Part shown: positions 21,331-38,316 of the stretch, one piece after another
Position numbering within the stretch: position 1 is the first letter of the stretch
Layout: each line of letters opens with the position of its first letter
Source of the DNA: Chloroflexota bacterium
Lineage (GTDB): Bacteria > Chloroflexota > UBA11872
DNA: 64,000 bases
Assembly (NCBI GenBank): GCA_965262745.1
Contig: OZ253558.1
Span: 1,090,567-1,154,566 of the forward strand
Direction: 5' to 3'
The notes under the pieces: generated by a model
The model's input: the letters and a program-made list of their open reading frames with translations, nothing else
Databases searched by the model: none
What the model was told of the DNA's origin: nothing
Program-made: the position numbers and the translations under genes

Positions 21331-21334
21331 TTGT

Positions 21335-22618
21335 CTACTGCTGATCGAAGTAGTCGCTGTACCAGAGACCGCCAAGCGGCAGACCTTCTTCGACCAGAGC
21401 TCGGACAATATGATCGTTGCTCGCCCTAGTAATGGTCGCGAAGCCGTCCGCCGATTTCTCCAAGATCCACGTTTCCTCGGGTGTCAGAGCATCGACGAAG
21501 TAGGGTTGGTGGGTCGTGACAAATATCTGGGGCGCGTTCCGGCGCCCCGAGGCGTGGCGGCGAAACTCATCGGCCAGCAATTCCAATAGTTTGTGATAGA
21601 GACCGTTTTCCGGCTCCTCGATGCATATGAACGGCGGCGGCTGCTGATCCTCCAGCATCAGCAGATACGCAAAGACTTTGAGTGTGCCGTCGGACACTTG
21701 CTGCGCGTAGAACGGGTCAGCGAAGCCCTTATCGTTGAAGCGCAGCAGCAAGCGACCGTCAGGACTGCGTTCCGTATCGATGCGGTCGATGCCGGGAACT
21801 CTCCTGGCAATCCGTCCAAGGATGCGTTCAAACCTATCGCGGTGCTCCCGCTCCATGAATTGCACGACGTTGCCCAGATTGTCTCCGTGGATATTCAGAT
21901 GCCGCTGGGGTCCAGCCATTGGCAACCCGCGCGCGGCGTCCGGCGTAAAGTAGCTCAGATACCAGCCTTCGATAAACTGACGAAAAGCCGCGATTCTCGG
22001 ATGTTGCTTCAGTGCCCCCAGGGTTGCAATACCCAGCTTGCGCTTGTCCTGAAGTTCAATAATCTCCCGTCCCGCGCCCTCCTCGTTTTCTAACCCTCTC
22101 AGTAGCGCTGAAAGGTCCACTTCCAGTCGGCCATCTTCATCGACCTGCAAACCCTGCACCTCGCCTGCCCAGGCCATTCCCTTGCCCTCGTTCAGCATCA
22201 AGAACGAAAATGGCCAGCCGCGTCTCTGTCCTCGACGACGCTGGCGCAGGCGTTCGCGTGAAACATAGGGGCGGCCCGAATCGTCCTTGTCGATCGCAAA
22301 TTCGTATGTGATCGGTCGAGCCTTCGAATCCTGCCGGTAATAGACCTCGAACTCGATGGGGGTGTCGCTACCCTGTGATCGTATGCGGTCGAACCCGCCG
22401 CGCCCACGCACGTCGCAGGCCTCTTCGACACCGAGCTTCAGGCAATCCGCCAGGAATCCGAAAGCATCGAATAGGGAGCTCTTGCCAACCCCGTTCTTTC
22501 CAATCACCGCCGTCAGCGGCTCTAACGGCTGGGCGGCAGGCGTGTTCCACAGCTTGCCTAGGGTGATGTCGTGCAACACCCGGTAGTTCCTGATGCCGAT
22601 GCCTTCGATACGGGCCAT
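21335..22618 (-). CDS. AAA_21/ABC-type ATPase (OLD/AbiL/PARIS-AriA-like ATPase component)
   Basis: There is a Walker A (GKNGVGKSSLFDAF) near the N-terminus, and a distal signature/Walker B region (FICIEEPENGLYHKLL...VTTHQP). Confidence 0.75.
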   Translation of the reverse strand: MARIEGIGIRNYRVLHDITLGKLWNTPAAQPLEPLTAVIGKNGVGKSSLFDAFGFLADCLKLGVEEACDVRGRGGFDRIRSQGSDTPIEFEVYYRQDSKARPITYEFAIDKDDSGRPYVSRERLRQRRRGQRRGWPFSFLMLNEGKGMAWAGEVQGLQVDEDGRLEVDLSALLRGLENEEGAGREIIELQDKRKLGIATLGALKQHPRIAAFRQFIEGWYLSYFTPDAARGLPMAGPQRHLNIHGDNLGNVVQFMEREHRDRFERILGRIARRVPGIDRIDTERSPDGRLLLRFNDKGFADPFYAQQVSDGTLKVFAYLLMLEDQQPPPFICIEEPENGLYHKLLELLADEFRRHASGRRNAPQIFVTTHQPYFVDALTPEETWILEKSADGFATITRASNDHIVRALVEEGLPLGGLWYSDYFDQQ

Positions 22619-22788
22619 GCGGTCAGTTTCTCTCGTTTAGCGCAGCACCGCTAGCAGCATAGCGTCGAGCAGGCTTGTTTCCACTGCCGCGAGGACAGAG
22701 AGCGGATAGGGCGTTGGCCAAGCGCCCGCGGTCGACGTCGCGGACCTTCTCGGGCCTCCAACAGATTGCGCACTGTCGCCACTTCGAA

Positions 22789-22835
22789 TGGTGCCCAGGA
22801 CGGGACTGGAACCCGCACAGCCCGGAGGCCACCAG
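22789..22835 (-). other. tRNA 3'-end remnant (variable arm, T-arm, acceptor 3' strand and CCA), a probable island att-site duplicate
   Basis: The reverse complement (tggcctccgggctgtgcgggttccagtcccgtcctgggcacca) matches the 3' 45 nt of the intact tRNA-Leu at 35720..35803 with 3 mismatches. The 5' part does not fold as a tRNA. Confidence 0.6.
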
Positions 22836-23031
22836 ACCCTAAACCGAGGTCAACCCACCGCCAGGCACTGCCGCAGCGCCTTGACCATGGCCGGTCGCTG
22901 CTCACGGCTCCTCGTGCCGACCGGATTGGCGATCGCCCGCATCACGACCTGTTGATCGGACGCTGAGAAGCGTAATCCCCGGCGCTGCTCCGCGGATGCC
23001 TGATACCCGCCACAGCCTCTGTCGCCCTGCA

Positions 23032-26000
23032 CTACGCGGGTGTGAGCGGGCTCTCAGCCTCGTCGTGGGCCATTTCAAACAGCCGCGCCAGGGCGTTGGC
23101 CAGGTGCATTTGGCGGGGCGTGCGGCAGCGCACGGCGAGCAAGCCCGGACTGGCCACGACTACCGCCAGGCACTTGGCGCGGCTGGTGGCGACGTTCAAG
23201 CGGTTGAGGCTGTAGAGAAACTCCATGCCACGCGGCGCCTCGTCGGCAGAGCTTGTGGCCATCGAGTAGATGGAAATCGGGGCTTCCTGGCCTTGGAACT
23301 TATCGACAGTGCCGATTCGCAACTCCCGGAGCTCAGGTCGGGATGCAAGCTCCCCGATCTGGCGGTTGTAGGGCGTGATGATGAGCACGTCTTGAGCGGT
23401 CAGCGCGTGGGTCGCGCCTTCGGCGTCAGTCCATGAGGCGCGCGACCGGAGCAACCGGTCGACGCTCTCGGCAATCGCCGCCGCCTCTTCCTCGGAGTCG
23501 CTGATGCGGCGCTCGTGCGACACGGCCACGAAGCGCAGTCCTGTCCCGAGGAACGGGGACGAGCCGGCCAGGTCCAAGTTCTCGCGGCCGGGATGCGCGC
23601 GCAGGTTGTCCTCGTAGAAGACTTCCGAGGTGAACTCACAGATGCTGGGATGCAGGCGCCACGTGCCGTCGAGAAACAGTCCGAAGTCCTTGGGCATCAC
23701 TCGTGCGTCATCGAGTACGTGCGCCAGCACCGAACGATCCGCGCCTGGCGGATGCACGCCCTGCAGCGGCTGATCCAGCTGCTGCGGGTCGCCCAGCAGC
23801 AACAGGCTCTTGGCGCAACGTGCCGAGGCCAAGGCGTCGGCCAGCGACATCTGCCCGGCCTCGTCGATGCAGAGCACGTCCACCAAGCCCTCCGCGTCGT
23901 CACGCGCCCAGAGCCAGGAAGTTCCGCCCACCACGTCAAGCGTTCCTCTGGCCAGGGCCATGCACGCATCCTCGGTTTTCGCGAGGGGTACCGCGTCCGC
24001 GAATTCGGGCTCGGCTGACCGGTAGCGGGTCCGCTGGCCGATCCTGACCGGGACGCCGCGCTCGCGGGCCACCCGCGCCGTCTTCTCCAGCAACTCACCG
24101 ATCACCTTGTGGCTGTTGGCCGTCACGCCCACGCGCTTACCCGCCTCCACGAGGTCCACGATCATCTCGGCACCAACCGTGCTCTTGCCCGAGCCGGGCG
24201 GTCCCTGGATCGCCAGGTAGCTCTCGTCCAGCATCTGCACCAGCCGCCGGGCCGCATCCTGCGCATCCTCGCCGTCCGCCGTCAGCGGTGATCCGTCGGT
24301 CTGTCCAACCCGTGGCGGACAGCGCATCAACAGGTCTCGGGCCGCCTGGTACGGCCCGGGCGCGTCGATCCCGTGCTCAATCACCCACGTCGCCAGATTC
24401 CGAAGGCTCGACGGTTTTGGCCCTGGATTGACATATTCGTAGGCGATCAGTGATGTCGGCGCCGGTGCTGCCCGGTTGGACCCAACCTTCAGGTCGATCA
24501 CGCCGTCTCGATCGTTTACCGCGACCACTTCGCCGATCGAATTTCCGTGCTGATCGCGTGGCCGGTCGCCGACTTCGATCTTGTGGTCCTGTGGCGGGAA
24601 CCGAAAGCTGTAGATCTTGGAACGCGACTTGGGCCTGGGATCGGCCCGACTGCGCACGTAGCTGAGCTGGCCCAGCGCGTCCGTCTCGCCGACTCGCTCT
24701 TCGTCGGTGAGTTCGTCCTTCAGGTGGAAATAGCGCCACCAGAACGCCTTATCCTCGCGCCGGTGCCAGTCGAGCAGCTGCGCCAGGAGCCACCGCCCGC
24801 GTTGGCTCGGATCTTCGAGCGACCTGCCGTCCGTCAAGTCCTCGGGCAGGCCCGCTGTCAGCTGGGCCACGAGTTCCTGCACCTCCCGCTGGGCCTCCGT
24901 GTCCTCGGTCTCTTCGGGAGGCTTGACCGTAGGACGCGGCGGGGCTTCGGCGCCGACTTCGTTCACCAGCGCGGCGCGCTGGACTTCCAGCCACTCGCGC
25001 AGATAGCAGGTGGAAAGACAGTCGTCGCGGTTATAGGCCCTGATCTTCTCCAGCAGGCCGTCCCGGTCGGTCCCGTCCTCGGGTTCGAGCCAGTTCTCGA
25101 ACTCCACGATGCTCTCGCCCGCATCGCGTAGATCGATTTCCCGCTTGAATCCGTAGAGCGGCTCCAGCCGCTTGATGGAGTAGCTCTCCACCGAAGCGCG
25201 AACGCCCTGCCGCACGACGCGGTAGAGGTCCACGAACACACTGCCCCGCAGCAGCTGGTCCACCTCTGACTCACGCGTGGCGTAGCGCCCCGCCAGCCGC
25301 TTCATTGCCCCTGTCTCGTAGGGCGCGTAGTGATAGACGTGCATGTCCGGGTGGCCAGTCCGGCGCTCCATGATGAGGTCGATACAGTCCTCGAACGCCT
25401 TACGCTCGGCCGCCGGCGACACGGTGCCGTCCGCGATCGACCAGAACGCGTGAAACCTGGGGTCGCCCGCGGCGTCCGTCTGTCCCGGCTCGATCACGCC
25501 GAAGAGGTAGTCGATGCCGTCGATCTCGTCCGAGCCATAGAACGGATCGCCCTCCAGGTCCAGGAACAGGTCACCGGGCGACGGCTCCGGCAACAGCCAG
25601 AGACCGCGGTCCGGAACAACCACGTCCTCGCGGTCGCGTTCGGGCGGGATGCGCTCCGAGATCACCTGGCCTTCGCCGCGCACCTGGATCGCCGCCTGGG
25701 CCTGCACCCGGGCCAGCGAAACCGGGCTGACGCCGTCCAGCTGTTCCGGCAGCGGCCGCGACGGATCGGCCAGCCCACCCCGTGTGGTCACGTCAATGGC
25801 GTGCAGGGCGCGTCGCTGGCGGGACGTCAGGTTGGCCACCAACGCCAGATCGTCTTCCCGACGCCACTGGGCTCGGCATTCCTGGTTCCACCTGCAGAAG
25901 TCGCAGTGCTGCATGGGTTCCGGCTTGGTCGAGATTGGAAACGCCGATTCGGAGTCGTCGAGCAGCGTCTCGAACTGCCGCGCGACCAGGCGGTAGTAGG

Positions 26001-26577
26001 CCCCGTAGTCGGCGACCCGAAGGCTCGCGGTCCTGCGCGCGACGCCGCCCAGCACCAGATGCATCCGTTCCGGCGGCCGCCCCTGCATTCTCCCGAGCAG
26101 GTCTGAATACATGCTGATCTGCAAGACGGCGGGGGCCGTGGGTTGCCGCGCCAGCTTGGTGTCCCAGACTTCATAGCTCCATGCCCCGAGGTCGCTGGGT
26201 TTCTCGACGCGGCGCAGGAAGTCCGCGTACCCCAGCCGCCGGTCGCCGAGCAGCACGGCCTGGTAGATCACGTCAACGCCATCTCGCATCGCCTGCAGCG
26301 TGGCGGCGTGCTCGGATTCAACCACTCGGGACGGAGACACGGTGTCGGGCGGCCGGATTTCCCTGATTCCCAGGTTCTCGGCGTCCAGCGATTCCAGGAA
26401 GCGCGCCTCATACTCCCGACCGCGCCGCGCCAAACGGTCGAGCACTGGGTCGTCACGAAACGGCCGTTTGAGGTCATGCAGAACCGCGGCGCGCTCCAGG
26501 TTGGCCAGGTGCCGGCACTCCAGGAACGCGACCAGATCGGTGGCGGAGTAGACCAGACGCCTATCAATCAGTTGCAT
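23032..26577 (-). CDS. RecB-like nuclease + RNaseH-like domain + SF1 (Upf1/Dna2-like) helicase fusion protein (TM0106-family N-terminal region)
   Basis: The 1181-aa ORF has an N-terminal RecB/Cas4-like region with a Cys cluster (HCDFCRWNQEC). It has a C-terminal Walker A (GPPGSGKST), a Walker B (CIDEAGQ) and SF1 motifs (GDPQQL, VATSRAK). Confidence 0.7.
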   Translation of the reverse strand: MQLIDRRLVYSATDLVAFLECRHLANLERAAVLHDLKRPFRDDPVLDRLARRGREYEARFLESLDAENLGIREIRPPDTVSPSRVVESEHAATLQAMRDGVDVIYQAVLLGDRRLGYADFLRRVEKPSDLGAWSYEVWDTKLARQPTAPAVLQISMYSDLLGRMQGRPPERMHLVLGGVARRTASLRVADYGAYYRLVARQFETLLDDSESAFPISTKPEPMQHCDFCRWNQECRAQWRREDDLALVANLTSRQRRALHAIDVTTRGGLADPSRPLPEQLDGVSPVSLARVQAQAAIQVRGEGQVISERIPPERDREDVVVPDRGLWLLPEPSPGDLFLDLEGDPFYGSDEIDGIDYLFGVIEPGQTDAAGDPRFHAFWSIADGTVSPAAERKAFEDCIDLIMERRTGHPDMHVYHYAPYETGAMKRLAGRYATRESEVDQLLRGSVFVDLYRVVRQGVRASVESYSIKRLEPLYGFKREIDLRDAGESIVEFENWLEPEDGTDRDGLLEKIRAYNRDDCLSTCYLREWLEVQRAALVNEVGAEAPPRPTVKPPEETEDTEAQREVQELVAQLTAGLPEDLTDGRSLEDPSQRGRWLLAQLLDWHRREDKAFWWRYFHLKDELTDEERVGETDALGQLSYVRSRADPRPKSRSKIYSFRFPPQDHKIEVGDRPRDQHGNSIGEVVAVNDRDGVIDLKVGSNRAAPAPTSLIAYEYVNPGPKPSSLRNLATWVIEHGIDAPGPYQAARDLLMRCPPRVGQTDGSPLTADGEDAQDAARRLVQMLDESYLAIQGPPGSGKSTVGAEMIVDLVEAGKRVGVTANSHKVIGELLEKTARVARERGVPVRIGQRTRYRSAEPEFADAVPLAKTEDACMALARGTLDVVGGTSWLWARDDAEGLVDVLCIDEAGQMSLADALASARCAKSLLLLGDPQQLDQPLQGVHPPGADRSVLAHVLDDARVMPKDFGLFLDGTWRLHPSICEFTSEVFYEDNLRAHPGRENLDLAGSSPFLGTGLRFVAVSHERRISDSEEEAAAIAESVDRLLRSRASWTDAEGATHALTAQDVLIITPYNRQIGELASRPELRELRIGTVDKFQGQEAPISIYSMATSSADEAPRGMEFLYSLNRLNVATSRAKCLAVVVASPGLLAVRCRTPRQMHLANALARLFEMAHDEAESPLTPA

Positions 26578-26723
26578 CGCCGATTCACCAGCCCGTCCCC
26601 ATGGCCGACGGCTTCACCCCGGCCACGCGTGCGATCAGCGCGAGCGCGTTGCCAACATACTCCGCGAGGCGACACCGGGCCAGATTGTGGGCCGCCTGCC
26701 GCGGCATGAAGCTGGGGCGACGC

Positions 26724-27452
26724 TCACAGCGGCAGCAGGTGCCCCGCTTCGCGCAGCCGCTGACGCCGCTGTTGCGCGTCCGGCATCGCTCTAACCACCA
26801 GCCCCCAGAAGTCCGGCCCGTGGTTCTTTATTGACAGGTGCGCCAGCTCGTGCACCACGATGTACTCGACAAGGGCAGGCTCCAACATCATCGCCCGCCA
26901 GTTGAAGCGCAGCGTGCCGTCCGGCGCGCAGCTCCCCCAGCGCCGGCGTTGATCGCGGATCAGCACGCGCGGCCAGTCGCCGTGACCCAGGCGCGGCCAC
27001 CAGCGCTCCACGCTAGTTGGCAGGCGGTCTGCCGCCCGCCTCCGATACCAGGCCACGAGGGCGCGCTGGGCACTGCGGGTTCGCTCACTATCGGACGCCC
27101 CCGTTGGCACCGTGACGCGGAACCGCCAGTGATCGAAGCGCACGCTCACCGACCTGACGTCGGCGTGCTCGACCAGCAAACGCACGTTGCGGCCCAGGTA
27201 AGGCAACGTCTCACCGCTCACAAAGCGCTTCGGCGCGGCGGCCAGCGTCTCCGCGGTGCTGCGGCGCATGATCCAGGCCGCCCGCTTGCGCACGATCCCC
27301 CGCAACTCCTCGGCGGGCGTCGAAACAGGCGCGGCGACCTGGACCCCGCCCCCGTCCACGGTGATCTGCACCGTCTTCCTGCGCCGCTGACTGCGCTGCA
27401 CCTCGAACTCGATCGTGCTCTCGCCGAAACGGACGGATCCCCGCTCACTCAC
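26724..27452 (-). CDS. DUF45/YgjP-like M48-type zinc metallohydrolase
   Basis: The HExxH motif (VVHELAHL) sits in a YgjP-like context. The ORF overlaps the hsdR stop by 4 nt. Confidence 0.65.
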   Translation of the reverse strand: MSERGSVRFGESTIEFEVQRSQRRRKTVQITVDGGGVQVAAPVSTPAEELRGIVRKRAAWIMRRSTAETLAAAPKRFVSGETLPYLGRNVRLLVEHADVRSVSVRFDHWRFRVTVPTGASDSERTRSAQRALVAWYRRRAADRLPTSVERWWPRLGHGDWPRVLIRDQRRRWGSCAPDGTLRFNWRAMMLEPALVEYIVVHELAHLSIKNHGPDFWGLVVRAMPDAQQRRQRLREAGHLLPL

Positions 27453-30400
27453 GATCCCGACCTCTGACGCGCCACGTCCACGATCTGGTGCGCCAGCTCG
27501 TCCAAGCGCTCTTCCGTGAAGTCCCCCGTGCCTCGCAGCTCCCGCTTGATATCCCGGCGCATCTCGCGCTGCACTTCAAGGTTCGACTGCCAATCGATCA
27601 CGTCGCTGTGACGCTGGATGGCGCGTTCGATCGCGCGCGCCACGGCCGTCGTCTGCTCGTCCAGGGCAGTGCGATAGGAGCCTGAAGCTTCGCCCGCGTC
27701 CACGCTCGGAGAGGCCAGCAACTCGTAGACCGCAAACGACACTGGCGAGAGCCCGTGCTGCGCGGCGATGTCCGCTTCGCTTTGGACCTGCTTGCGCAAT
27801 TCGGCCAGTCGCCGGCAGGCCTCGGCAGCGTCGATCAGCCGCTGACGCAGTTCCTGGATGATGCGGTCCAATTGCTCCGAGAGCTTCTCATAGAACGCCG
27901 GGTTTTCCGCCAGTCGCTCGTTGATCTGGGCGCGGACCGCGTGCTCCATCAGCGACGCCCGCGCTTCGTCGTGCGGCAGGTCGGCAATCTTCGCCTCGAA
28001 GTCCTGATCCAGGATCGAGAGCGGCTGCATCAGGCTGCGCACCTTGGCGTCGATGCGCTCGTCGATCAGGCCCTTCACCTTCGCGCCAATATCGGTCCAA
28101 TCCAACTCCGCGTCCTCGCGCAGGAACTGCGCCCGCACATAGGCGCGAATCGCCGTCAGCCGCGCCAACCGCTGTACGTAGGGCTCGGCGCCCGGGTCCG
28201 GCAGGTAGCGGTCCATCAGGCGGGCGAACTGACGGTAGTCCGCGCTGAATCGCTCGAACAGGTCGGCCTTGAACGCGTCCTCCGAGGCGGCATCCGGCGC
28301 AAACAGCGCCGCGCAGTCCCACACGTTGCTCAGGTCGCGGCCCTTGAAGTGCGACTCCGCCTGCACCGCCGCGGCCTCGATCGCCGGCCCGGGATCCTCC
28401 TCCAGCTCGCGCATGGAGTCCTGCACGTCTGGCCAGTCGAACGTCGCCAGCGCCGCCTCCAGGTCCCGCGAGACCCCGTGATAGTCGATCACCAGGCCGT
28501 GCCGCTTCTCCGTGTCCACGTTGTCCGGCCGGTGCGCGAAGCGCCGGTTCACGCGGGCAATCGCCTGCAGCAGGCCGTGTTCCCGCAGCCCACGGTCCAG
28601 GTAGAGCACCTGCTCCACCGGCGCGTCAAACCCGGTCAGCAGCATGTCCACCACCACCAGGATCTGCGGCTCGCCCTCGGGGTCCACGAACGCGCCGGTG
28701 ATCTGCTCCTGGTTGAGATCGCGCGCCGCGGCGAACTCCGGGCCGTCGTTGTTATCGGTGGTGATGATCGGATAGGCGCTCAGCCCAAAGGTCTTCAGGC
28801 GCTCCGCGTAGCGCAGCGCCGCCGCCCGGCTGGGCGCCACCACCTGCGCCTTGAACCCGTTCGGCTGCACCTTGGCCTTGAAGTGCTGGGCAATATCCAG
28901 CGCGATCATCTCGATGCGACGCTCCGCCTCCGCCACCGTCTCCTTGTTCGCGTAGCGCCGCCGGATGCGCGCCTGCGTCTCCTCGGACTCCTGGCCGAAC
29001 ATCTCCTCGAACAGCGTGTCCAGCGTCTCCGGCCCCTCGATGTGCAGTTCCGGCAGCCGCGCCTCGTAGAGGATCGGCACGGTGGCGCCGTCGGCGACCG
29101 ACTGCGGAATCGTGTAGGAGTCGATCAGCGAACCGAATCGCCGCATCGTGCTGTGACCGAAGTCCTTGTCGATGGGCGTGCCCGTAAAGCCGATCAGCGC
29201 TGCGTTGGGAAGGGCCTTGGACATGCGCGCGCCCAGCAATCCGTATTGCGTGCGGTGCGCCTCGTCCACCATCACCACCACCTGCTCCGATGGGTTCAGC
29301 ACATCCAGCCGGCCCTTGGGAGTCGTCAGCGCGTCCTCGAACTTCTGGATTGTCGTCATCACCGTGCGGCCGCCGCCGCTTCTCAGCAGCCGGCGCAGGT
29401 TGCGGGCGTTGGTCGCCTGCTCAGGCGCCGGAAAGCCGCAGCGTTGGAAGGTGCCGCTGATCTGCCGGTCCAACTGCGTGCGGTCGGTCACCACCACGAT
29501 CGTCGGGTTGTGCAGCCGCGGCTCGCGCCGCAGCTTGGTGGCCAGCCACAGCATCGTCAGCGACTTGCCCGAGCCCTGCGTGTGCCACACCACCCCGCCG
29601 CGCTCCTCGGGACGGCGGCCCGTCAACAATCGCTCCAGCGCCGCTCGCACCGCGCGGTACTGCTGATAGCGCGGCAGCTTCTTCACCAGCTTGCCGGCCT
29701 GCGGCTCGTAGACCACGTAGTCGCGCAGGATGTCCAGTAGCGTGGCCGGCGCCAGCAGCCCCACGATCAGCCGCGCCTGGCCCTCTGGTTCCACCCCGAA
29801 GCGCTGCCGCGCCTCGGCTTCCGAATAGGGCAGCACCGACTTCCATTCCACGTAGGCGTTCTCGGGCGCGCCCAGCGTCGCGTACGCCGCCGCGGCTCCG
29901 CAGTGCGCCACGCACAGCAGGTTGGTGTGGAACAGCTCCGGCGCGCCCGTCCCGTGCCACTCGGGCCCCGCTTCTTGGTAGCGACGCAGCTGGCGCACCG
30001 CCTGCGTCCGCCACACGTCCAGCAGCGACGGCGATTTCGCCTCCATCACCACCAGCGGCACGCCGTTCACGAACAACACCAGGTCCGGCTTCACCACCCG
30101 CTGGTCGTCTTCCTGGTTGCGCCGCTCGTTACCCCGACGCACCCGGAACTGCGTCGTCACCACGAACTCGTTCAGCCCGCCCTCCGGATGATCGAAGTCG
30201 AAGAAGCGCGCAATCCGGCTCTGGCGACCACTGGGCGTGTCCACCCCCAGCGGCATGCCGTAGATCAGGTGCTCGTGCACGCGCTGATTGCGGGCCATGC
30301 CGCTGAAGTCGCTGCGCTCCAGATCAGCCACCACCCAGTCCGCCTGCGACTCGGTCATCCAGGCGTTCAACCGCAGCAACGCCCGCCGCAACCGCCCCTT

Positions 30401-30538
30401 TAGCAACACCTCCCGCTCGTCCCCGCGCTCCGCCGCCAGCGTTTCGCGTGGGACGTACGTCCAGCCCAGTCTTTCAAGCAGCTCCCGCGCCGGGTTCTCG
30501 GCGTGATGGAGCTCATTGAGCCTGGCGGGAGTGGTCAT
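27449..30538 (-). CDS. hsdR: Type I restriction enzyme R subunit (HsdR)
   Basis: The 1029-aa ORF has helicase motifs (DEAHRTQ, FTGTP) in HsdR-type architecture. It lies in an operon with hsdS and hsdM. Confidence 0.9.
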   Translation of the reverse strand: MTTPARLNELHHAENPARELLERLGWTYVPRETLAAERGDEREVLLKGRLRRALLRLNAWMTESQADWVVADLERSDFSGMARNQRVHEHLIYGMPLGVDTPSGRQSRIARFFDFDHPEGGLNEFVVTTQFRVRRGNERRNQEDDQRVVKPDLVLFVNGVPLVVMEAKSPSLLDVWRTQAVRQLRRYQEAGPEWHGTGAPELFHTNLLCVAHCGAAAAYATLGAPENAYVEWKSVLPYSEAEARQRFGVEPEGQARLIVGLLAPATLLDILRDYVVYEPQAGKLVKKLPRYQQYRAVRAALERLLTGRRPEERGGVVWHTQGSGKSLTMLWLATKLRREPRLHNPTIVVVTDRTQLDRQISGTFQRCGFPAPEQATNARNLRRLLRSGGGRTVMTTIQKFEDALTTPKGRLDVLNPSEQVVVMVDEAHRTQYGLLGARMSKALPNAALIGFTGTPIDKDFGHSTMRRFGSLIDSYTIPQSVADGATVPILYEARLPELHIEGPETLDTLFEEMFGQESEETQARIRRRYANKETVAEAERRIEMIALDIAQHFKAKVQPNGFKAQVVAPSRAAALRYAERLKTFGLSAYPIITTDNNDGPEFAAARDLNQEQITGAFVDPEGEPQILVVVDMLLTGFDAPVEQVLYLDRGLREHGLLQAIARVNRRFAHRPDNVDTEKRHGLVIDYHGVSRDLEAALATFDWPDVQDSMRELEEDPGPAIEAAAVQAESHFKGRDLSNVWDCAALFAPDAASEDAFKADLFERFSADYRQFARLMDRYLPDPGAEPYVQRLARLTAIRAYVRAQFLREDAELDWTDIGAKVKGLIDERIDAKVRSLMQPLSILDQDFEAKIADLPHDEARASLMEHAVRAQINERLAENPAFYEKLSEQLDRIIQELRQRLIDAAEACRRLAELRKQVQSEADIAAQHGLSPVSFAVYELLASPSVDAGEASGSYRTALDEQTTAVARAIERAIQRHSDVIDWQSNLEVQREMRRDIKRELRGTGDFTEERLDELAHQIVDVARQRSGS

Positions 30539-30906
30539 GGGCTCTCCCCGCGGGAGTCCTCCAACATCTTTCGCAGCTGCGGCAGCATGCTTGGGATCGC
30601 ATCTTGAATTATCGACCAGATGATGACGTCACTGATGTGCAAATAGGAGTGCGCCAAGCGATTGCGGACCCCGATGATTGCGCGCCAGGGAATCATGGGA
30701 TATGCCTCACGCGCGTCGGATGGGATATGCGTTGCCGCCTCACCGATCAGTTGGATGTTGCGCAACGTGGCGTCGTGGATGAGACCGTCGGCTGCGAAGG
30801 CGTCCTGATCCAGTCCATCCGTATATGACAGGACTTTCTCGGCGAACTCGATCATGTCCTGAACGTAAAGATTCCAGCGTCGACCTTCTTCATGGGTCTC
30901 ACACAT
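30535..30906 (-). CDS. HepT-like (DUF86) toxin of a HepT/MNT toxin-antitoxin pair
   Basis: The RX4HXY-like motif is present (RNRLAHSY). The start at 30906 overlaps the MNT stop by 8 nt. Confidence 0.65.
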   Translation of the reverse strand: MCETHEEGRRWNLYVQDMIEFAEKVLSYTDGLDQDAFAADGLIHDATLRNIQLIGEAATHIPSDAREAYPMIPWRAIIGVRNRLAHSYLHISDVIIWSIIQDAIPSMLPQLRKMLEDSRGESP

Positions 30907-31216
30907 CCACGGCCTCCCGTTCCACGTGCGGACGCATTTCGGCCCGAACGTCCTCCCGGGTCGCCAGTTCCACCGGTCGTTGCAGCAGGTCTTCCAGGTA
31001 GAACTGGGCTCCGAAGTAGGTCCGCCAGTTCGGAGGAGCGTCGAACCGCACCAGGATGTCAACGTCGCTCCCGTCGGTACCTTCGTCCCGGGCATAGGAG
31101 CCGAACAGGGCGAGATCCGCGACGCCGAATCGCTCCGCCAGCACCGGCCGGTGGGCTCGGAGCATCTCCAGCACTTCCGCTCTGGTCATGGCGTCACTCC
31201 GTCGAGGCGGGCGCAT
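30899..31216 (-). CDS. MNT-type nucleotidyltransferase antitoxin (PF01909-like)
   Basis: The 105-aa ORF has the GS...D.D nucleotidyltransferase motif (LFGSYARDEGTDGSDVDILV). Confidence 0.75.
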   Translation of the reverse strand: MRPPRRSDAMTRAEVLEMLRAHRPVLAERFGVADLALFGSYARDEGTDGSDVDILVRFDAPPNWRTYFGAQFYLEDLLQRPVELATREDVRAEMRPHVEREAVDV

Positions 31217-31370
31217 GCATTACGACTGGCAGCCTGGCATCCTCGTGTTCGCCCCCGCGCTCCGCCGCCAGTGTTTCCCGTGGCACGAAGGTCGAACCCA
31301 GCTTCTCAAGCAGCTCTCGGGCCGGGTTCTCGGCGTGATGGAGCGCGTTGAGCTTCGCGGGCTGGCTCAC
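31194..31370 (-). pseudogene. Duplicated 5' end of hsdR (about 40 codons), open as a 58-codon GTG-initiated ORF ending just before the MNT start
   Basis: The reverse complement translates to VSQPAKLNALHHAENPARELLEKLGSTFVPRETLAAERGG. The authentic HsdR N-terminus is MTTPARLNELHHAENPARELLERLGWTYVPRETLAAERGD. DNA identity to 30400..30538 is about 85%. Confidence 0.7.
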
Positions 31371-31924
31371 GACCTATTCGACCCTGTGGCCTTGCTGATG
31401 GCTCGACTTGCACCGTCCAGCCGACGCATTAGGTGATTCGCCAGCGTCAGAAGCTCAAGTGCAACGTCAGAATCATCCTCGAGCCCGTGCTCATGCGCAC
31501 GCGGATTCCTAATGCCCGTCATCGCCCCGGCATAGATATCCATGTAGCCAAGCTGTTCGTCACGGTCAGAGTTCGACTGAAAATCATTCATACAAAGAGT
31601 GGGTGAATTAACACTAAATGCTTTTCGCATAAGACTCGCACCATCCTGACCCAATATACCCGACTTTTGCTTGACTTCATTGTTCATGCATTTCAAAGCT
31701 TCTTCAACAGCCCGCGCATAGTGACCATCAGCAAACAATTGGCGGCTCACTGAACGAAGCGCCTCGCTTGTCACCACATCGTCGAATCGGTCAAGGACGG
31801 TTCGCTCGTCGGAGTGAGCACGATCCCGCCTTGATAACGTTCTCCCCAAGCCTGCCTCGTCTGCATCCATTTGAACATCGTTGGCTGCCTTGAGCCAGCC
31901 ACGATAACCTCCACGGTTAGCCAA
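31367..31924 (-). CDS. Hypothetical protein embedded in the type I R-M operon (possibly TIGR02391/PF09509-like)
   Basis: This is a 185-aa, lower-GC ORF. Recognisable blocks include ALKCMNNEVKQK and IRNPRAHE...LELLTLANHLMRRL. The family call is from memory only. Confidence 0.35.
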   Translation of the reverse strand: MANRGGYRGWLKAANDVQMDADEAGLGRTLSRRDRAHSDERTVLDRFDDVVTSEALRSVSRQLFADGHYARAVEEALKCMNNEVKQKSGILGQDGASLMRKAFSVNSPTLCMNDFQSNSDRDEQLGYMDIYAGAMTGIRNPRAHEHGLEDDSDVALELLTLANHLMRRLDGASRAISKATGSNRS

Positions 31925-31927
31925 GCG

Positions 31928-32716
31928 TCATTCATCCTTCCGACCGTACAGGTGTCGTGCCATGCTTCGAAAGATTTGGTCAATTTGATCGGCTGTAGCG
32001 CTAGAATCAATATGAATCTGACTGTCAATGTGTACAGATGGGTCAGCAGTCGCTACAGATACCGTAGTAGCCGAATTCAGTAAATCGTTGCCTTGAGGCG
32101 ATGGGTCCGCGCTTGGCTGAACATCATCCGGGATTTGTGATTTCGCACCGTCTGGCATGTTTTCTAGGGCATGGCCGATCGTTATCAGCCGCTCACTTCC
32201 ACTTACCTGTTGGATGATCCCAAGGTAGCGTGCATTTGCCATAACGATATTCCCAGCTTCCGCACGGTATCCATCGGGAACCCCTACCAGACCCAGTTCA
32301 TCTTTCAGCACATCGTCGGCAGGGACTCGCTGGTTCTTTAGCCGGCCGTACAGCTGGTTGAACGGATCGATCCGACCAATCGCATGCTCGAATTCCATCC
32401 GTAGCTTCGCCTGCCGTTCAACCGATTCATCGACGATAGATCTACCCTCTGGTGTGAGTTCCAGGAAATCCGCTTGATAGCCTCCTGATGTAAGGCCATA
32501 GCGTCCTGAACTCGTAACAAGCTCGCGGCTCGGACCGCTTTCCGGGGCACGGCCCAGCCTGTCAAACAGGGTTAGTCGCCGCATCCGGTCTCCCGCGCCT
32601 TCCATGGCGATGGTGCGTGCAATCGATAGCGCGTCCTCAAAGGTGACAGTCGGATAGGTCTTGGATGGACCGCGGCTTCGACGCGGGCTCGATGCGGTGT
32701 CCTTGGAATCTGTCAT
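31928..32716 (-). CDS. Hypothetical protein (262 aa), lower GC, between hsdS and the preceding unknown gene
   Basis: The ORF is clean and packed 4 nt from its neighbours. I recognise no family. Confidence 0.4.
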   Translation of the reverse strand: MTDSKDTASSPRRSRGPSKTYPTVTFEDALSIARTIAMEGAGDRMRRLTLFDRLGRAPESGPSRELVTSSGRYGLTSGGYQADFLELTPEGRSIVDESVERQAKLRMEFEHAIGRIDPFNQLYGRLKNQRVPADDVLKDELGLVGVPDGYRAEAGNIVMANARYLGIIQQVSGSERLITIGHALENMPDGAKSQIPDDVQPSADPSPQGNDLLNSATTVSVATADPSVHIDSQIHIDSSATADQIDQIFRSMARHLYGRKDE

Positions 32717-34011
32717 CGTTCCCCCTCTGTCGCTATCGGAACCCTCAAGGATCCCGTCAACAGTGTGTCCGTCATTGACGCTTTTAGCGATTGTACAGAG
32801 AATCGCTCCTGGAACGTCATTTCAATCGCACCCCTCGCACCGGCTATGATCTCGGCGATAGCCCGCTGCTCGCAAAGCGATGGGAGGGCAACGGTGAGTG
32901 ATCCTACTTGCTCAAGGTTGATATTCGCCTGCGCCAACTCTGAGCGAAGATCATCGACCTGCTTCTGTACCATCTTTCCGCTTAGCATGAGCGCCGTGAA
33001 CTCGGGCGTAGCCCGCTGATTCTTGGCCAATCGAACAATTGCGAGAGCCTGATTAACATTCGCGGGAAGGTGTTCACTCGTAATCAGAGCTGATCGACCG
33101 AGTGCACCAGCAATGCTCAAGAGGATGTCACCGGCTTGTAATATCGATCGCGAAAGCATCTGGTGGGTTTCACCGGTGATAAAGCGCAGTTCTCCACCTG
33201 TCACCAACCCGTCAGCGATGTTCTCGACGCGCAGGAATCGCACACCTGCTGGCACGTACTCGTGGCCCAAGGTGGTTGGCGTCGTTCCCTTGGTGATTCG
33301 CTCACATATCGCCTTCAGCCGCACGACTTGCCAGTCTGCCGGGATGATTCCCAGGCCGGGCACGCTGCGCCATTCGGTATGCCAGCCGGGAACGCCGCGG
33401 GTGAGGAGGTCGTGGAGCAGGGCGTCGCGCAGGCGCTCGGTGGCGCTGATGACCGCCTCGGTGTGTTCGATGGCCTCGTCAATGGCATCCAGCACGGCGG
33501 CGATAGCACACTGTTCCGACAGCGGTGGTAGAAGAATCGGTAGGGAACGCGTTGCATCCAGCGTCAGACCGAATCGCGTGATCCCGTTCGCCACACGAGC
33601 AAACTCTCGGCGTGATGCCTGAGAGCCCAATGCTTCTGCAAGGAATTGACCTTCTACGACCGTCGGCCGCGGTCGCGCCATTCCAAGGTGATAGCCGCAC
33701 AAGACATTAGGCATCGTGTCTGTGACATAAGCGGCGATACCTATTTCGTCAGGGGTTTCGGAGTCTTTTGTGAAGAGCACGTCACCACGCTTCAGGCTCC
33801 AGCGCTTGTGCTCTTTCGCAGTCGCCGTAGCTTCCATGAACGGCATTCCAGGTCCGATGAGTCGATTGTAAAACACGTCCGTATAGTTGCAGAGTTGAAC
33901 TGGTATTTCACTGTCCATTTTCTTCTTGTCTACTCCACTAAAGGCAATAGCTGCCACGTCCCCCAGCTGCACCACTCGCCACCCGTCCGGCAACTCACTC
34001 AGATCGCGCAT
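32713..34011 (-). CDS. hsdS: Type I restriction-modification specificity subunit (HsdS)
   Basis: The ORF has two target-recognition domains separated by conserved helical spacers, and sits between hsdM and hsdR. Confidence 0.8.
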   Translation of the reverse strand: MRDLSELPDGWRVVQLGDVAAIAFSGVDKKKMDSEIPVQLCNYTDVFYNRLIGPGMPFMEATATAKEHKRWSLKRGDVLFTKDSETPDEIGIAAYVTDTMPNVLCGYHLGMARPRPTVVEGQFLAEALGSQASRREFARVANGITRFGLTLDATRSLPILLPPLSEQCAIAAVLDAIDEAIEHTEAVISATERLRDALLHDLLTRGVPGWHTEWRSVPGLGIIPADWQVVRLKAICERITKGTTPTTLGHEYVPAGVRFLRVENIADGLVTGGELRFITGETHQMLSRSILQAGDILLSIAGALGRSALITSEHLPANVNQALAIVRLAKNQRATPEFTALMLSGKMVQKQVDDLRSELAQANINLEQVGSLTVALPSLCEQRAIAEIIAGARGAIEMTFQERFSVQSLKASMTDTLLTGSLRVPIATEGER

Positions 34012-34093
34012 GAGTTCCCGCCAGTGTTCATGGCCAAGCCGCTCACGCCATCGCGCCCATTCGGCTCATCAGGCACGGTCATGACCGGCTGCA

Positions 34094-35623
34094 TTAGCGC
34101 TCATAACCCAGCTCCGCCAGCAGCTTGTCCATCTTCGCCACCGCCTCATCGCGCCGCCGTTCGGCCTCTCGCAGCTGCGCCAGCGCCTCCTCCACGCTGA
34201 GCACCTCTATGGGCTCGCTGGTATCCACGTAGCGGCTGATGTTGAGGTTGAAGTCGTTGGCCTCGATCTCCGCCAGGTCGGCCACGTGGGCGAAGCGCTC
34301 GACATCCTCGAAGCCGCGGTAGGCGGCGACGATCTTTTGGATGTGCTCCCGGTCCAGGAAGTTCTGCGCCTTGCCCTGGCGGAAATAGCCCTCCTGCGCC
34401 GCGTCCACGAACAGCACCTTGCCGCGCCGCTCGCTGGGCTTGGCCTTGTTGAGCACGCAGATGGCCACCGGGATGCTGGCTCCGTAGAAGAGGTTGGGCG
34501 CCAGGCCGATCACGGCCTCGAAAAGGTCGCTTTCGACGATGCCGCGGCGGATCTTGCCCTCGGCGCCACCACGGAACAGCACCCCGTGCGGCATCACCAC
34601 GCCCACCATGCCCGTCATGGTGGTGACGGCCAGCATGTGCAGCAGGAACGCCAGGTCGCCCCTGGTGCGCGGCGGAATCGCGCCATAGCGGTCGAAGCGG
34701 TGATGCGGGTCGTCGGGCGCGAAATCGTGGCCCCAGTTCTTGAGGCTGAACGGGGGATTCGCGATCACCCGGTCGAAGGCCAGCAGGCGGCCGGCGTTGT
34801 CCAGCAGGCGCGGCTCGGCGATCACGTCGCCTTCCTCCAGCCGCGCGGCGGACAGCCCATGCAGCAGCAGGTTGAGCTTGCCGGCGGCCAGCGTGCCTCG
34901 GTTGCGCTCCTGCCCGTGCAGCACCAGGTTGCGCCGGTCGCCCCCCTGCTCCTGCACGAACTGCGCGGTGTAGATGAGCATGCCGCCCGAGCCGGCCGTC
35001 GGGTCGCAGATGCGCATGCCCTCACGCGGCTGCAGCAGCTCGACGATCAGCCGCACCACCGGGCGCGGGGTGTAGAACTCGCCGCCCTTCTTGCCGGCGT
35101 CGTCGGCGAACTGATTGATCAAGTATTCGTAGGCGTCGCCCAGCACGTTGTCCGAGCCGCCGTCCGCGCCGCGCAGGTTCGCGTCGCGCAGGTCAAGCTC
35201 GCTGAAGTGGTTGAGCAGTTGGCGGATGATGCGCTCGCGGTTGGCCGGGCTGCCCAGCCGGGATTCGTCGTTCCAGTTGACGCTGGTCAGCACGCCGTCC
35301 AGCCGCTGCACGTTCTCAATTTCGATGTTGTGCCCGGCCACGTTGAGGGTCTCGCCCAGGTTCATGGACGCCCTCACCAGGGCGGGCCAGCGAGCGGATT
35401 CCGGCACGAAGAACTCGTGCTCGTCGTGGTCCGTCAGTGCCGTCTGGCGCGGCACGCCCGAGGCCACGGCGGCCTCGACCTCTTCGTCGAACCGGTCCGA
35501 CAACCGCTTCAGGAACAGCACCGCAAAGATGTAGTTCTTGTAATCCGCCGCGTCGATCTGCCCGCGCAGGATGTCCGCGGCCTGCCAGAGCTTGGATTGC
35601 AGTTCCTGCTGACTGAGCGGCAT
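34094..35623 (-). CDS. hsdM: Type I restriction-modification N6-adenine DNA methyltransferase (HsdM)
   Basis: There is a SAM-binding motif, the catalytic NPPF motif (ANPPFSLKNW) and an HsdM N-terminal domain. The real start is MPLSQQELQSKLW at 35623, and the longer ORF would run into the tRNA. Confidence 0.9.
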   Translation of the reverse strand: MPLSQQELQSKLWQAADILRGQIDAADYKNYIFAVLFLKRLSDRFDEEVEAAVASGVPRQTALTDHDEHEFFVPESARWPALVRASMNLGETLNVAGHNIEIENVQRLDGVLTSVNWNDESRLGSPANRERIIRQLLNHFSELDLRDANLRGADGGSDNVLGDAYEYLINQFADDAGKKGGEFYTPRPVVRLIVELLQPREGMRICDPTAGSGGMLIYTAQFVQEQGGDRRNLVLHGQERNRGTLAAGKLNLLLHGLSAARLEEGDVIAEPRLLDNAGRLLAFDRVIANPPFSLKNWGHDFAPDDPHHRFDRYGAIPPRTRGDLAFLLHMLAVTTMTGMVGVVMPHGVLFRGGAEGKIRRGIVESDLFEAVIGLAPNLFYGASIPVAICVLNKAKPSERRGKVLFVDAAQEGYFRQGKAQNFLDREHIQKIVAAYRGFEDVERFAHVADLAEIEANDFNLNISRYVDTSEPIEVLSVEEALAQLREAERRRDEAVAKMDKLLAELGYER

Positions 35624-35719
35624 CGGTTCTCCCTGTGGCGCTGTGGGGGCGTAGGTACTGATGGCGCCGACAAGCGAGTCTCGCAGATGCTCACGGCGCG
35701 GCCGCGCGGTGTGAACGGG

Positions 35720-35803
35720 TGCCGAGGGCGGGACTCGAACCCGCACAGCCCGGAGGCCACTAGCCCCTCAAGCTAGCGCGTCTACCAATTCCGCCACCTC
35801 GGC
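35720..35803 (-). tRNA. tRNA-Leu (anticodon GAG), type II with a long variable arm
   Basis: The reverse complement gccgaggtggcggaattggtagacgcgctagcttgaggggctagtggcctccgggctgtgcgggttcgagtcccgccctcggca folds as a cloverleaf by hand. It has a 7-bp acceptor stem, a D-arm, an anticodon loop ttGAGgg, a 15-nt variable arm and a T-arm gcggg/ttcgagt/cccgc. Confidence 0.8.
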
Positions 35804-35902
35804 CGGGCGGTTGATTATAGGCGCGGCCGCGAAGGGTCGTTTGGCCGGGCGCCCCGCGCAGGCGGATGGCGTACGCTGAATGAAACTGAACGCCTGTCGG
35901 TA

Positions 35903-36349
35903 GTGTTTATGTCAAGCACCGCTCACGTTGCATGGCTCCGATTGTCCCCACGCTCCGGCCAGAACCTTGACGTCAGCAGCCTCAGCTTCGTCGCCGACGT
36001 CGGCATCGAGGGCGACCGCCACGCCAAGCCCGACACCCGCAATCAAGTGCTGCTCATGGACACCGAAACCCTCGACGCGCTGGAGCTCGCGCCCGGTGAC
36101 ATTCGCGAGAACGTCGCCACGCGCGGCATCGACCTCGCGTCGCTGCGTGAGGGCGACCGCTTGGGCATCGGCGCGGAGGCCGAGGTGGTGATCTCCCATC
36201 CCTGCGACCCCTGCTCCAAGATGGACGCGTTGCGGCCCGGACTTCAGGAAGAGATACGCGGACGCCGGGGCATGCTCGCCAACGTCAGCGCCAGTGGCGT
36301 GGTCGTTGCTGGAGACCCCATCACCTCCACGTCCGCCGCGGAGGCCTGA
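35903..36349 (+). CDS. MOSC-domain protein
   Basis: The 148-aa ORF contains GDRH and a conserved C-terminal Cys (HPCDPC). Confidence 0.6.
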   Translation: MFMSSTAHVAWLRLSPRSGQNLDVSSLSFVADVGIEGDRHAKPDTRNQVLLMDTETLDALELAPGDIRENVATRGIDLASLREGDRLGIGAEAEVVISHPCDPCSKMDALRPGLQEEIRGRRGMLANVSASGVVVAGDPITSTSAAEA

Positions 36350-36398
36350 CCGCCGCCGCGCATCCCGGCGCCGGAACCCCGCGCCCTCAGGAGGTCGC

Positions 36399-36929
36399 AT
36401 GAATCTCTACATCCTGCGGCACGGCAAGGCTGAACCCCTGGGACCGGCGTATCCCCGCGACGACGAGCGCCCGCTCAGCCCTGGAGGATGGCGGCGAACC
36501 GAACGGTCGGCAAAGGGCATGGCGTCCGCGAACGTCGCCGTCGGCGCGATCATCTCCAGCCCGTTGCTGCGCGCCCGCCAAACCGCCGAGATCGTTCACC
36601 TGGGACTCGGCGTCGCCGCGGAGATCGAATATTCCGACGCCCTTGCCACCGGTGATCTCATGGGCATCCTCTCGGCGGTCCGGTCCCATGAGCGCAGTAA
36701 GGGCGTCATGCTGGTTGGGCACGAGCCAACGCTGAGCCAGCTGATCTCGATCTTGGCGTTCGGCGCGCCGGGCGGGGCGCTCGATCTCAAGCCCGGCGGG
36801 CTGTGCAAGCTCCAGACGTATGCCATCGGGCTGCGGCAATGCGCCATGGTTCGGTGGTTCCTGACGCCCAAACAGCTGGCAGCGCTGGGCCGGCGCTCGC
36901 CTGCGGGCAATCGGGGCGCGGCGGCGTAG
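36399..36929 (+). CDS. sixA: Phosphohistidine phosphatase SixA-like (histidine phosphatase superfamily)
   Basis: It has the RHG motif ([10 protein letters not shown]) and a downstream catalytic His (LVGHEPT). The start is taken at MNLYIL. Confidence 0.65.
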
Positions 36930-37077
36930 AGCGGCCGAAAAGGTCCCCACGTATGGAGACCTTTGCAAAACCGTCATTTCCGCGAAACCGGGAAGCCAGC
37001 AACAGTGCGTACACATTGGCGGACACTGGTTCATCGACACAGACGCCTCCACCTGGGAGTCAGGCAAAGGTCTCCGT

Positions 37078-38316
37078 ATGAAACGCTGCGCGAGCTCGAC
37101 CCTGGCGTGTGCGCTAGCACGGACCGGACCGCGGGCCTTCGCAGCGGCGGCGGTTGGATCAGCATTGGCCGTCTCCATCGCCTGCGACGGCGGCTCGCCG
37201 TCCGTGATCCGCGTGCCGCTCGAGCGCATCACGATAGCTGCATCGTCGCCGGCGCCGAGCCCTGTAGCTGATCTTCCTGCCGGCCGACCCCGCCCCACTC
37301 CCACGTCTCCGGTGAGCGTGCCCACCCCCACGCCCAGCCCTTCCCCGACGCCGAGCCCAACACCCGCACCCACGGCCACGCCAGCCGCGGCGCCAACGGC
37401 CACGCCATCGCCCACGCCGACACCCAAACCCACGCCGACCCCGACGCCCGCGGCGACGCCAACGCCCACTCCAACGCCGTCCTTTCCCGAGACCCCGCCC
37501 CCGCTCCGCTGGATCGCCTACCAAGCGGACACCGGCCGCAACCTCGAAATCTTCGTCATCGCCAGCGACGGCACCGCCCGCAGGCAGCTCACCTTCAACC
37601 CCGCCGACGACGCGCAGCCCGCGTGGTCGCCCGACGGGACAACCATCGCCTTCGCCAGCAACCGGGACGGGGAATTCCGCATCTGGTTGATGGACGACCT
37701 CGGCCGCAGTATTCGTCCGCTCACCCAGGGTCCGGGCGACTCCCGCCCCGCGTGGTCGGCCGATGGCCGCCAGATCGCCTTCCAGTCTCAGCGCCGAGGC
37801 AGCCCCGACATTTGGATCGTGGATGTCGAGACGGCAACCGAAACGCTGGTGGTTGGCAGCGGCCGCGCCGAGACCTCGCCATCGTTCGCGCCCGACGGCA
37901 GCCGGGTGGCGTATAGCGCCGATCGATTTGGGCAGTACGACGTATTCACGGTGGCCGTTGATGGCACCGACGAACAGCGGTTGACCGACGCCGCCGCCCA
38001 CGACCTCGAGCCGAGCTGGTCGCCGGACGGCGAGCGCGTGGCCTACACCACATTCCGCGACCGCATCCCGTACGTCGCCATCGTCAACGCCGACGGCACG
38101 GGCAAGGCCGTGCTCGCGCTTTCCGAATTCAGATCCACCGTGGGGGATCGGGACCCCGTCTGGACGGCGGACGGCCGCGCGTTGATCTATGTGACGGCTG
38201 ATCCCGACTCGTCTAATCTGGCGCTGATGTGGGCCGATGGTTCGGGCCGGAGCCTCTTCGTGTATCGCTTTGGTGATGACTCAGCACCCTCACCCGGTCC
38301 CGCGGTAGCCCCATGA
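37078..38316 (+). CDS. Secreted TolB-like PD40 beta-propeller protein with a Pro/Thr/Ala-rich linker
   Basis: A signal peptide and a PT linker (nt about 37260-37500) precede repeated PD40 units ([65 protein letters not shown]). Confidence 0.65.

Follow-up and report, generated by a model that had tools for sequence, protein, structure and literature searches.

The 64-kb stretch of a Chloroflexota genome analysed here (the window) carries a tRNA-Leu(GAG) gene and, 12.9 kb downstream of it, a decayed copy of that gene's 3′ portion, referred to below as the remnant. The locus would best be described as an additive defence hotspot at tRNA-Leu(GAG), assembled by several separate events, with a decayed attachment (att) scar and no recombinase now present; from comparison with related genomes we give this description a probability of roughly 0.7. 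A preceding interpretation made from the letters of the window alone (the sequence-only reading) had taken the DNA between the two copies for one defence island of 12.9 kb bounded by the tRNA and the remnant. That unit does not survive the comparison: two close relatives, L012 and L013 (related loci are given L numbers), keep the tRNA, the helicase gene and the remnant without the cluster of type I restriction-modification (RM) genes. The interval is shown by these alignments to have two layers, an older tRNA–helicase–remnant arrangement of about 4 kb and a separate RM cassette of 9.07 kb. Nor does the remnant mark the edge of the defence genes, as had been thought, since the HEC-01 pair lies directly beyond it and the variable, defence-rich region spans from the tRNA to a dehydrogenase gene at about 17.5 kb.

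The repeat itself is real. tRNA-Leu(GAG), at 35718–35803 on the minus strand, is the one tRNA that ARAGORN calls in the window; the sequence-only reading had the gene and its strand right and gave it as 35720–35803. The gene, the attB of the hotspot, is 100% identical in L001–L004, L012, L013 and L018. The remnant (22790–22848, minus strand) is in direct orientation relative to the tRNA, runs from the anticodon loop to …CCA, with the 3′ end …GGGCACCA, and has the form of an attR-type scar at the junction between the helicase and HEC-01. A repeat search pairs it with 35718–35776 over 59 nt at 86% (family D17), blastn-short aligns 43 nt at 93% (E=4e-12), and pairwise alignment of the 45-nt core gives exactly three mismatches to the tRNA: G>C in the T-loop, C>T in the T-stem and C>G in the acceptor. 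The fragment near 22.8 kb, its direct orientation, its CCA and its three mismatches had all been described correctly. The possibility that a complete, independent tRNA lies at 22.8 kb, raised at the same time, falls away: the remnant is not called by ARAGORN, has zero Rfam tRNA matches even at E≤10 and has no tRNA cloverleaf recognised by either. Position 57 of its T-loop is C instead of a purine. A purine at this position is usually conserved in tRNAs. A full-length pseudo-tRNA was also considered and rejected, because the Rfam tRNA match is absent and the upstream part is unlike the 5′ half of the tRNA.

Weak similarity upstream of the remnant core is common to L015 and to a tRNA-like element of L007, which ARAGORN calls tRNA-Gln. 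This 88-nt ‘tRNA-Gln(ttg)’ (L007 2321–2408) matches tRNA-Leu at 87% over 47 nt and has about 35 nt of upstream flank in common with the window remnant. A 95-nt ‘tRNA-Phe(gaa)’ called in L014 (8795–8889) has just an 18-nt match with tRNA-Leu. Both elements adjoin an EEP-family gene and look like tRNA-like relics.

The layering of the interval emerges from the relatives. A scan with the MOSC-domain protein encoded beside the tRNA returned ten loci, nine from Chloroflexota metagenome-assembled genomes (MAGs) and one (L010) from a Candidatus Eisenbacteria MAG; the same tRNA-Leu(GAG) lies beside the MOSC gene in eight of the ten. Exact-protein look-ups with the window's MOSC and MFS genes gave no match. 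L012 and L013, found through a HEC-01A homolog, have 95–96% nucleotide identity to the window and are syntenic with it on both flanks. By blastn, window 35718–39598 corresponds to L012 5782–1902; window 20187–26647 corresponds to L012 12431–5993 as a single block that holds HEC-01, the remnant (97.5%) and the helicase; and window 15194–17545 corresponds to L012 14630–12235. The order in both relatives is tRNA, a 209-bp spacer, helicase, remnant, HEC-01 and dehydrogenase, without 26648–35717 and 17546–20186, and L001 likewise has tRNA, spacer and helicase. Within the 12.9-kb interval, only 26648–35717 is polymorphic against L012, L013 and L001: the helicase stays in place throughout, and the remnant stays in L012 and L013. 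Since these two have the remnant without the RM cluster, the remnant is older than the RM block and does not pair with it as an att site. The 209-bp spacer is common to L012, L013 and L001 (83%), with its helicase-proximal 70 bp also found in L011; because it has no counterpart in the window, L012 is not a simple deletion derivative of the window.

These comparisons bear directly on a single island that would have entered tRNA-Leu with both the helicase and the RM cluster, bounded by tRNA and remnant, and would have lost its integrase later. Such an event would explain a direct repeat of the right orientation and extent next to a tRNA that is a proven attB in relatives, and it gains something from L018 (about 85% identical to the window), in which RM cassette and helicase are also contiguous and both junctions of the RM cassette, with the tRNA and with the helicase, are conserved. 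It is nevertheless hardly credible. L012 and L013 have tRNA, helicase and remnant without RM, and the spacer shows that they are not simple deletions; L018 combines RM and helicase without a remnant, an LRR gene replacing its HEC-01; and the RM cassette moves alone in L017 and L019. The 12.9-kb unit does lie immediately 3′ of an intact tRNA, as an island should; it has no distal repeat from the same event, is not present or absent as a unit in relatives, and has no integrase. On this last point the sequence-only reading was confirmed: Phage_integrase (Pfam) is absent from all sizeable open reading frames (ORFs) between 9 and 42 kb, and six integrases from related loci, used as tblastn queries on all 64 kb, gave noise only (best E=0.07), so that both kinds of search were empty of an integrase or recombinase in the interval.

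The tRNA is an integration site in this lineage. L002 and L006 each have a tyrosine integrase gene as the immediate downstream neighbour of this tRNA, and the two proteins are 52% identical. L002 and L014 come from one contig, on which tRNA positions 32–86 recur as a perfect, directly oriented 55-nt copy 76.6 kb away on the downstream side; integrases are found at both ends of the 76.6-kb span, the second just inside the 55-nt repeat. L011 has a perfect 55-nt copy of the same positions, preceded by low-GC DNA. Wherever genomes are compared, their similarity stops directly behind …GGCACC, and the tRNA/hsdM junction of the window is no exception. There, similarity to the RM-less relatives ends right after the GGCACC of the tRNA, the RM cassette abuts the tRNA 3′ end exactly, and hsdM starts about 95 bp past that end. 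The junctions show that about 55 nt on the 3′ side of the tRNA, anticodon loop to …GGCACC, are the attB for tyrosine integrases in this lineage, and the position of the RM junction right after GGCACC means that the RM cassette sits exactly where integrase-made junctions fall. The proposal of tRNA-targeted integration is thus upheld in part: the repeat has the anatomy of a scar and the tRNA is an integration site in relatives (L002, L006, L011, L014), but the proposal does not apply to the 12.9-kb unit. In the window the tRNA gene ends …GGCACCC (35715–35720), with CCA unencoded, and in the RM-less L012 (5780–5786) it ends …GGCACCA; the base following CC at the tRNA end is set by whatever inserts at the att site.

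To within 1 nt, the remnant core and the perfect 55-nt repeats have the same starting point. Orthologs are found in L012 and L013 (97.5%) and in L015, in the same spacer between helicase and HEC-01A. The three mismatches had been explained either by an attP derived from another host's tRNA or by the decay of an old insertion, and L015 (about 82% identical to the window) favours the second. Its remnant carries the tRNA base at all three positions at which the window and L012 differ from the tRNA, and has seven private differences of its own; because the L015 ortholog keeps the tRNA base at 3/3 sites, the mismatches reflect lineage-specific decay and not a foreign attP. Exact k-mer searches identified no donor tRNA or phage attP: a remnant 23-mer has zero exact matches in IMG/VR and JGI metagenomes, and a tRNA 39-mer has zero in IMG/VR. 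Old age, the other option offered, is favoured by the L015 comparison and fits the unmatched 23-mer. Taken together, the orthologs show a remnant that predates the RM cassette and is decaying neutrally.

Immediately past the remnant, and outside the interval of the sequence-only reading, are the adjacent genes HEC-01A (21335–22618, minus strand; an ABC/AAA_21 ATPase by Pfam, PADLOC 1.6e-190) and HEC-01B (20677–21408, minus strand; DUF4276/TOPRIM-like by Pfam, PADLOC 1.1e-88). The pair (20677–22618) is low in G+C (0.54–0.59). It is absent from L001, L014 and L018, and in L016 it stands in an unrelated context beside an MmeI-type enzyme, with similarity confined to 20690–22674. In a rival explanation the remnant belongs with HEC-01, either because it came with the pair from a donor that had HEC-01 directly downstream of a tRNA-Leu, or because an integrase used a tRNA-like pseudo-site as a secondary attB to deliver HEC-01 here. 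The segment specific to the window against L001 (20384–22979) holds both HEC-01 and the remnant, HEC-01 lies on the 3′ side of the remnant, as islands do beside a tRNA, and the remnant is present only in genomes with HEC-01 (the window, L012, L013 and L015). We nonetheless consider this origin unlikely, as the HEC-01 of L016 extends its similarity over 20690–22674 only and comes without a remnant, L011 has HEC-01 without a remnant, and the far end of HEC-01 has no matching repeat.

The reading as an additive hotspot draws on the whole variable region, which is divided into two slots by the helicase cassette (22980–26647, minus strand, delimited by the limits of similarity to relatives). The first slot, between tRNA and helicase, is occupied by type I RM genes in the window and in L018 and by ZacABC in L003, and is empty in L001, L012 and L013; in L011 and L014 it has integrase-bearing DNA on the upstream side of the 55-nt repeat and Trypsin_2 modules on the downstream side. 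The second slot, between helicase and dehydrogenase, holds HEC-01 in the window, L011, L012, L013 and L015 (in the window together with a 2.6-kb insertion), an Avs-like gene of 1505 aa in L006, an LRR gene in L018 and nothing in L001; in L014 it is filled by an ADP-ribosylglycohydrolase, an unannotated 357-aa ORF and a restriction-endonuclease-like gene. The locus thus combines conserved flanks and variable cargo, a cargo enriched in defence genes, and mobile-element activity at the site, which are the features by which an additive hotspot is recognised.

The following history would account for this arrangement. An old integrase-mediated insertion at the tRNA may have left the remnant as an attR scar, displacing the former tRNA 3′ end together with the DNA then downstream of it; the helicase cassette would be the surviving cargo of that insertion. 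The RM cassette would have come later to the same tRNA nucleotide, probably on an integrase-bearing element, possibly laid out as in L017 with the integrase beyond the YgjP-like gene. The integrase, the distal repeat and the spacer of about 210 bp would then have been lost from the RM element, possibly by a single deletion. The RM-plus and RM-minus states would be alternative alleles, exchanged or lost through homologous recombination between the tRNA/MOSC and helicase flanks.

Several observations weigh against this history. The first concerns the helicase, a TM0106-family RecB-like nuclease fused to an SF1 helicase (23032–26577, minus strand; Pfam RNase_H_2 and AAA_11/12/30). It lies directly downstream of the tRNA in relatives without the RM cassette, has 6878 homologs, and among the 120 listed its identity grades from 97% to 64%. 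With a family so widespread in Chloroflexota and an identity so smoothly graded, the gene could be an ancestral neighbour of the tRNA and not island cargo, in which case the remnant would need another origin. Second, scar, repeat and tblastn searches found no distal repeat, terminal repeats or integrase fragment for the RM cassette, and an integrase-mediated origin of this cassette is suggested solely by the position of its junction. Third, helicase and HEC-01 are adjacent in L011, with homologous spacer ends, and an unrelated 133-bp patch stands in place of the remnant. Finally, the comparison covers about ten relatives, each over at most 10 kb on either side of the matched gene. The L011 patch (9822–9955, 133 bp) replaces the central 118 bp of the window's spacer (22744–22861), which holds the remnant.

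The helicase cassette also has its own record of movement. Its limits of similarity fall at 22980–23069 and 26647–26678 in L001, L003, L006, L011, L012, L014, L018 and L020, and in L020 the helicase lies among housekeeping genes near recA. The helicase and dehydrogenase of L006 are about 90% identical to those of the window, and its MOSC gene is only 73% identical, which suggests that the helicase-to-dehydrogenase block of L006 may have moved horizontally. In L006 this block (1–9612) is inverted relative to the tRNA and abuts an HTH gene and the integrase beside the tRNA; the L006 dehydrogenase is truncated at its N-terminus.

A route that dispenses with integrases altogether was also weighed. 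In homology-facilitated illegitimate recombination, incoming DNA would have been anchored on the tRNA/MOSC side and joined inside the tRNA, leaving the recipient's 3′ part as a diverged duplicate. Two further insertions in the window have an imperfect duplicate of a gene end and no recombinase, one at the dehydrogenase gene (197 nt, 88%) and one at hsdR (121 nt, 83%). However, the 5′ limit of the remnant falls within 1 nt of the limit of the 55-nt repeats of L011 and L014, and an illegitimate joint could fall anywhere; we regard this explanation of the remnant as very unlikely. Imperfect duplicates of neighbouring gene ends accompany three insertions in the window (tRNA, 59 nt; dehydrogenase, 197 nt; hsdR, 121 nt), and the RM, helicase-nuclease and HEC-01 cassettes all have sharp limits and recur at 82–95% identity in unrelated contexts. 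A broader and rather doubtful proposal is that defence cassettes in this lineage turn over without a resident recombinase, by a general capture mechanism; this might be homology-facilitated illegitimate recombination, or trans-acting integrases that use tRNA-like pseudo-sites, the remnant then being a usable secondary attB that seeded the second slot.

The gene content proposed for the interval was borne out by Pfam and PADLOC, which give, between remnant and tRNA, the SF1 helicase with its RNase_H_2-like nuclease, YgjP/DUF45, HsdR, HepT, MNT, Hypoth_Ymh (HEPN-like), a 262-aa ORF, HsdS and HsdM. All but the first belong to the type I RM cassette with its embedded genes (26648–35717, minus strand), the limits of which are set by blastn breakpoints against L012, L013 and L001, where it is absent; it is present in the window and L018. 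All of its genes lie on the minus strand. The methyltransferase gene hsdM (34094–35623; Pfam N6_Mtase and HsdM_N, PADLOC MTase_I 1e-145) encodes 509 aa, the length found in relatives. It is followed by hsdS for the specificity subunit (32713–34011), which is low in G+C (0.55–0.59) and has two Methylase_S stretches in Pfam and a Specificity_I match in PADLOC. Inside the operon are the 262-aa ORF (31928–32716), which matches no family in Pfam or PADLOC, and the Hypoth_Ymh/HEPN-like gene (31367–31924; Pfam PF09509, PADLOC PD-Lambda-3_B/Aga_HEPN). MNT (30899–31216; Pfam NTP_transf_2) and HepT (30535–~30906; Pfam HepT-like) form a toxin-antitoxin pair directly upstream of hsdR and are matched by PADLOC as PDC-S09. 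The restriction subunit gene hsdR (27449–30538) has HSDR_N, SWI2_SNF2 and T1RH-like_C domains in Pfam and PADLOC REase_I at 1e-142. The final gene of the cassette encodes a YgjP-like (DUF45) metallopeptidase (26724–27452; Pfam PF01863, 1.5e-52), which accompanies hsdR in L017, L018 and L019 as well. HsdM, HsdS and HsdR are all there at full length, with Pfam and PADLOC matches that span full domains, and together the RM genes of the window are a complete predicted type I restriction-modification system.

The same cassette recurs in the unrelated contexts of L017 and L019 at 89–95% identity, with similarity confined to hsdM through YgjP. In L017 a tyrosine integrase lies 1.7 kb past YgjP; in L019 a Replic_Relax gene (PF13814), McrBC and GmrSD lie alongside the cassette, and a TIR gene occupies the slot between hsdS and MNT. 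This slot is variable, with Ymh and the 262-aa ORF in the window (31367–32716), the TIR gene in L019 (8077–9360), and small ORFs of unknown type in L017 (8192–9185) and L018. In L018, where the stretches concerned are 6178–6519 and 8449–8922, hsdM and hsdS are in addition separated by a DUF2442 gene. Searches for terminal repeats, direct or inverted, flanking the RM block or the HEC-01 segment gave scores at the level of shuffled sequence, as did all searches for tRNA-derived scars at the other module junctions (20384–20700, 26601–26760, 17548–17700 and 19827–20190).

Just upstream of MNT/HepT is a 121-nt copy (83%) of the hsdR 5′ end, 31241–31361 repeating 30409–30529. The arrangement suggests that MNT/HepT entered at the beginning of hsdR, the former 5′ end persisting as a relic. 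In blastn, L017, L018 and L019 match the relic through their hsdR 5′ ends alone, and a second copy upstream of MNT was not found in them.

The left side of the variable region has been built up in a comparable way. The conserved left flank is a D-2-hydroxyacid dehydrogenase gene (16438–17547, plus strand; Pfam), syntenic with amidohydrolase and DAO/GcvT genes in L012, L013, L014 and L015. Next to it is a 2.64-kb insertion (17546–20186, minus strand) with a 140-aa ORF of unknown type, an ADP-ribosylglycohydrolase and an EEP-family ORF by Pfam, and no recombinase; L001 and L011 have this insertion, L012 and L013 do not. At its far end the final 197 nt of the dehydrogenase gene recur out of place (20187–20383, plus strand), a duplicate identified by translation and as repeat family D1 against 17349–17545 (88%). 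L012 and L013 have a single copy and lack the insertion, and the two window copies are 90% and 87% identical to that of L012. A duplicated gene end is the same signature as that of the tRNA repeat. On the right, the conserved flank is the MOSC-domain gene (35903–36349, plus strand; identified from its translation, with a PF03473 match on its orthologs), which is syntenic in L001–L004, L012, L013 and L018 and is followed by SixA-like, PD40 and MFS genes.

Two further repeats of the window lie outside the variable region. A 28-nt palindromic motif, GGGTAGGGGCGGTTCGCGAACCGCCCTC, occurs four times (43512–43539, 54651–54678, 56231–56258 and 56260–56287), including a tandem pair, and looks like an intergenic element of the REP type. 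A segment of about 140 nt is duplicated at 9205–9341 and 11105–11240, 1.9 kb apart, as two adjacent repeat families (75 nt at 84% and 68 nt at 90%); its copies lie at both ends of a 614-aa ORF without a Pfam match, beside the DAO/GcvT gene.

Islands and prophages that carry tyrosine integrases and target tRNA genes reportedly include a class with an anticodon-loop sublocation, a scheme attributed to Williams 2002 (Nucleic Acids Res 30:866). The present locus resembles such islands in that insertions lie 3′ of the tRNA, the repeat spans anticodon loop to 3′ end (55 perfect nt in L011 and L014), L002 and L006 have an integrase adjoining the tRNA, and successive insertions push older, decaying repeats outward. 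It differs from them in that the window lacks an integrase, a distal repeat is missing from the RM cassette, and the sole repeat is not paired with the newest insertion.

Additive core defence hotspots, in which core genes and a tRNA or tmRNA form the flanks, have been described, such as cDHS1 and cDHS2 of Pseudomonas aeruginosa, and tRNA-associated additive defence hotspots are known from Pseudomonas and Enterobacteria (PMC10250203). Like cDHS1 and cDHS2, the locus has a tRNA landing pad between conserved flanks (MOSC/SixA and, opposite, dehydrogenase/amidohydrolase), its cargo differs from relative to relative (type I RM, ZacABC, HEC-01, Avs-like or nothing), and transfer by flanking homology is plausible. 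Unlike them, it belongs to uncultured Chloroflexota, is small, with about 18 kb between the dehydrogenase stop and the tRNA, and is split in two slots by the helicase cassette. HEC-01 is a candidate defence system for which no protection was detected (bioRxiv 10.1101/2024.01.29.577857). The nesting of HepT/MNT, the HEPN-like Ymh gene and the 262-aa ORF in the RM operon, in a slot that varies, resembles the embedded defence genes of that study, but the HEC-01 of the window is free-standing and not inside an Hma system.

When islands are called from one genome, a tRNA accompanied by a partial repeat can be misleading: here the repeat is real but does not pair with the newest and largest insertion. 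The correct units for annotation are the 9.07-kb RM cassette, the helicase cassette, HEC-01 and the 2.6-kb insertion. For uncultured Chloroflexota, the locus provides a two-slot defence hotspot at tRNA-Leu(GAG) of which occupied, empty and integrase-bearing states can be compared. It leaves the concept of such hotspots unchanged and adds an under-studied phylum to a pattern known mainly from Proteobacteria.

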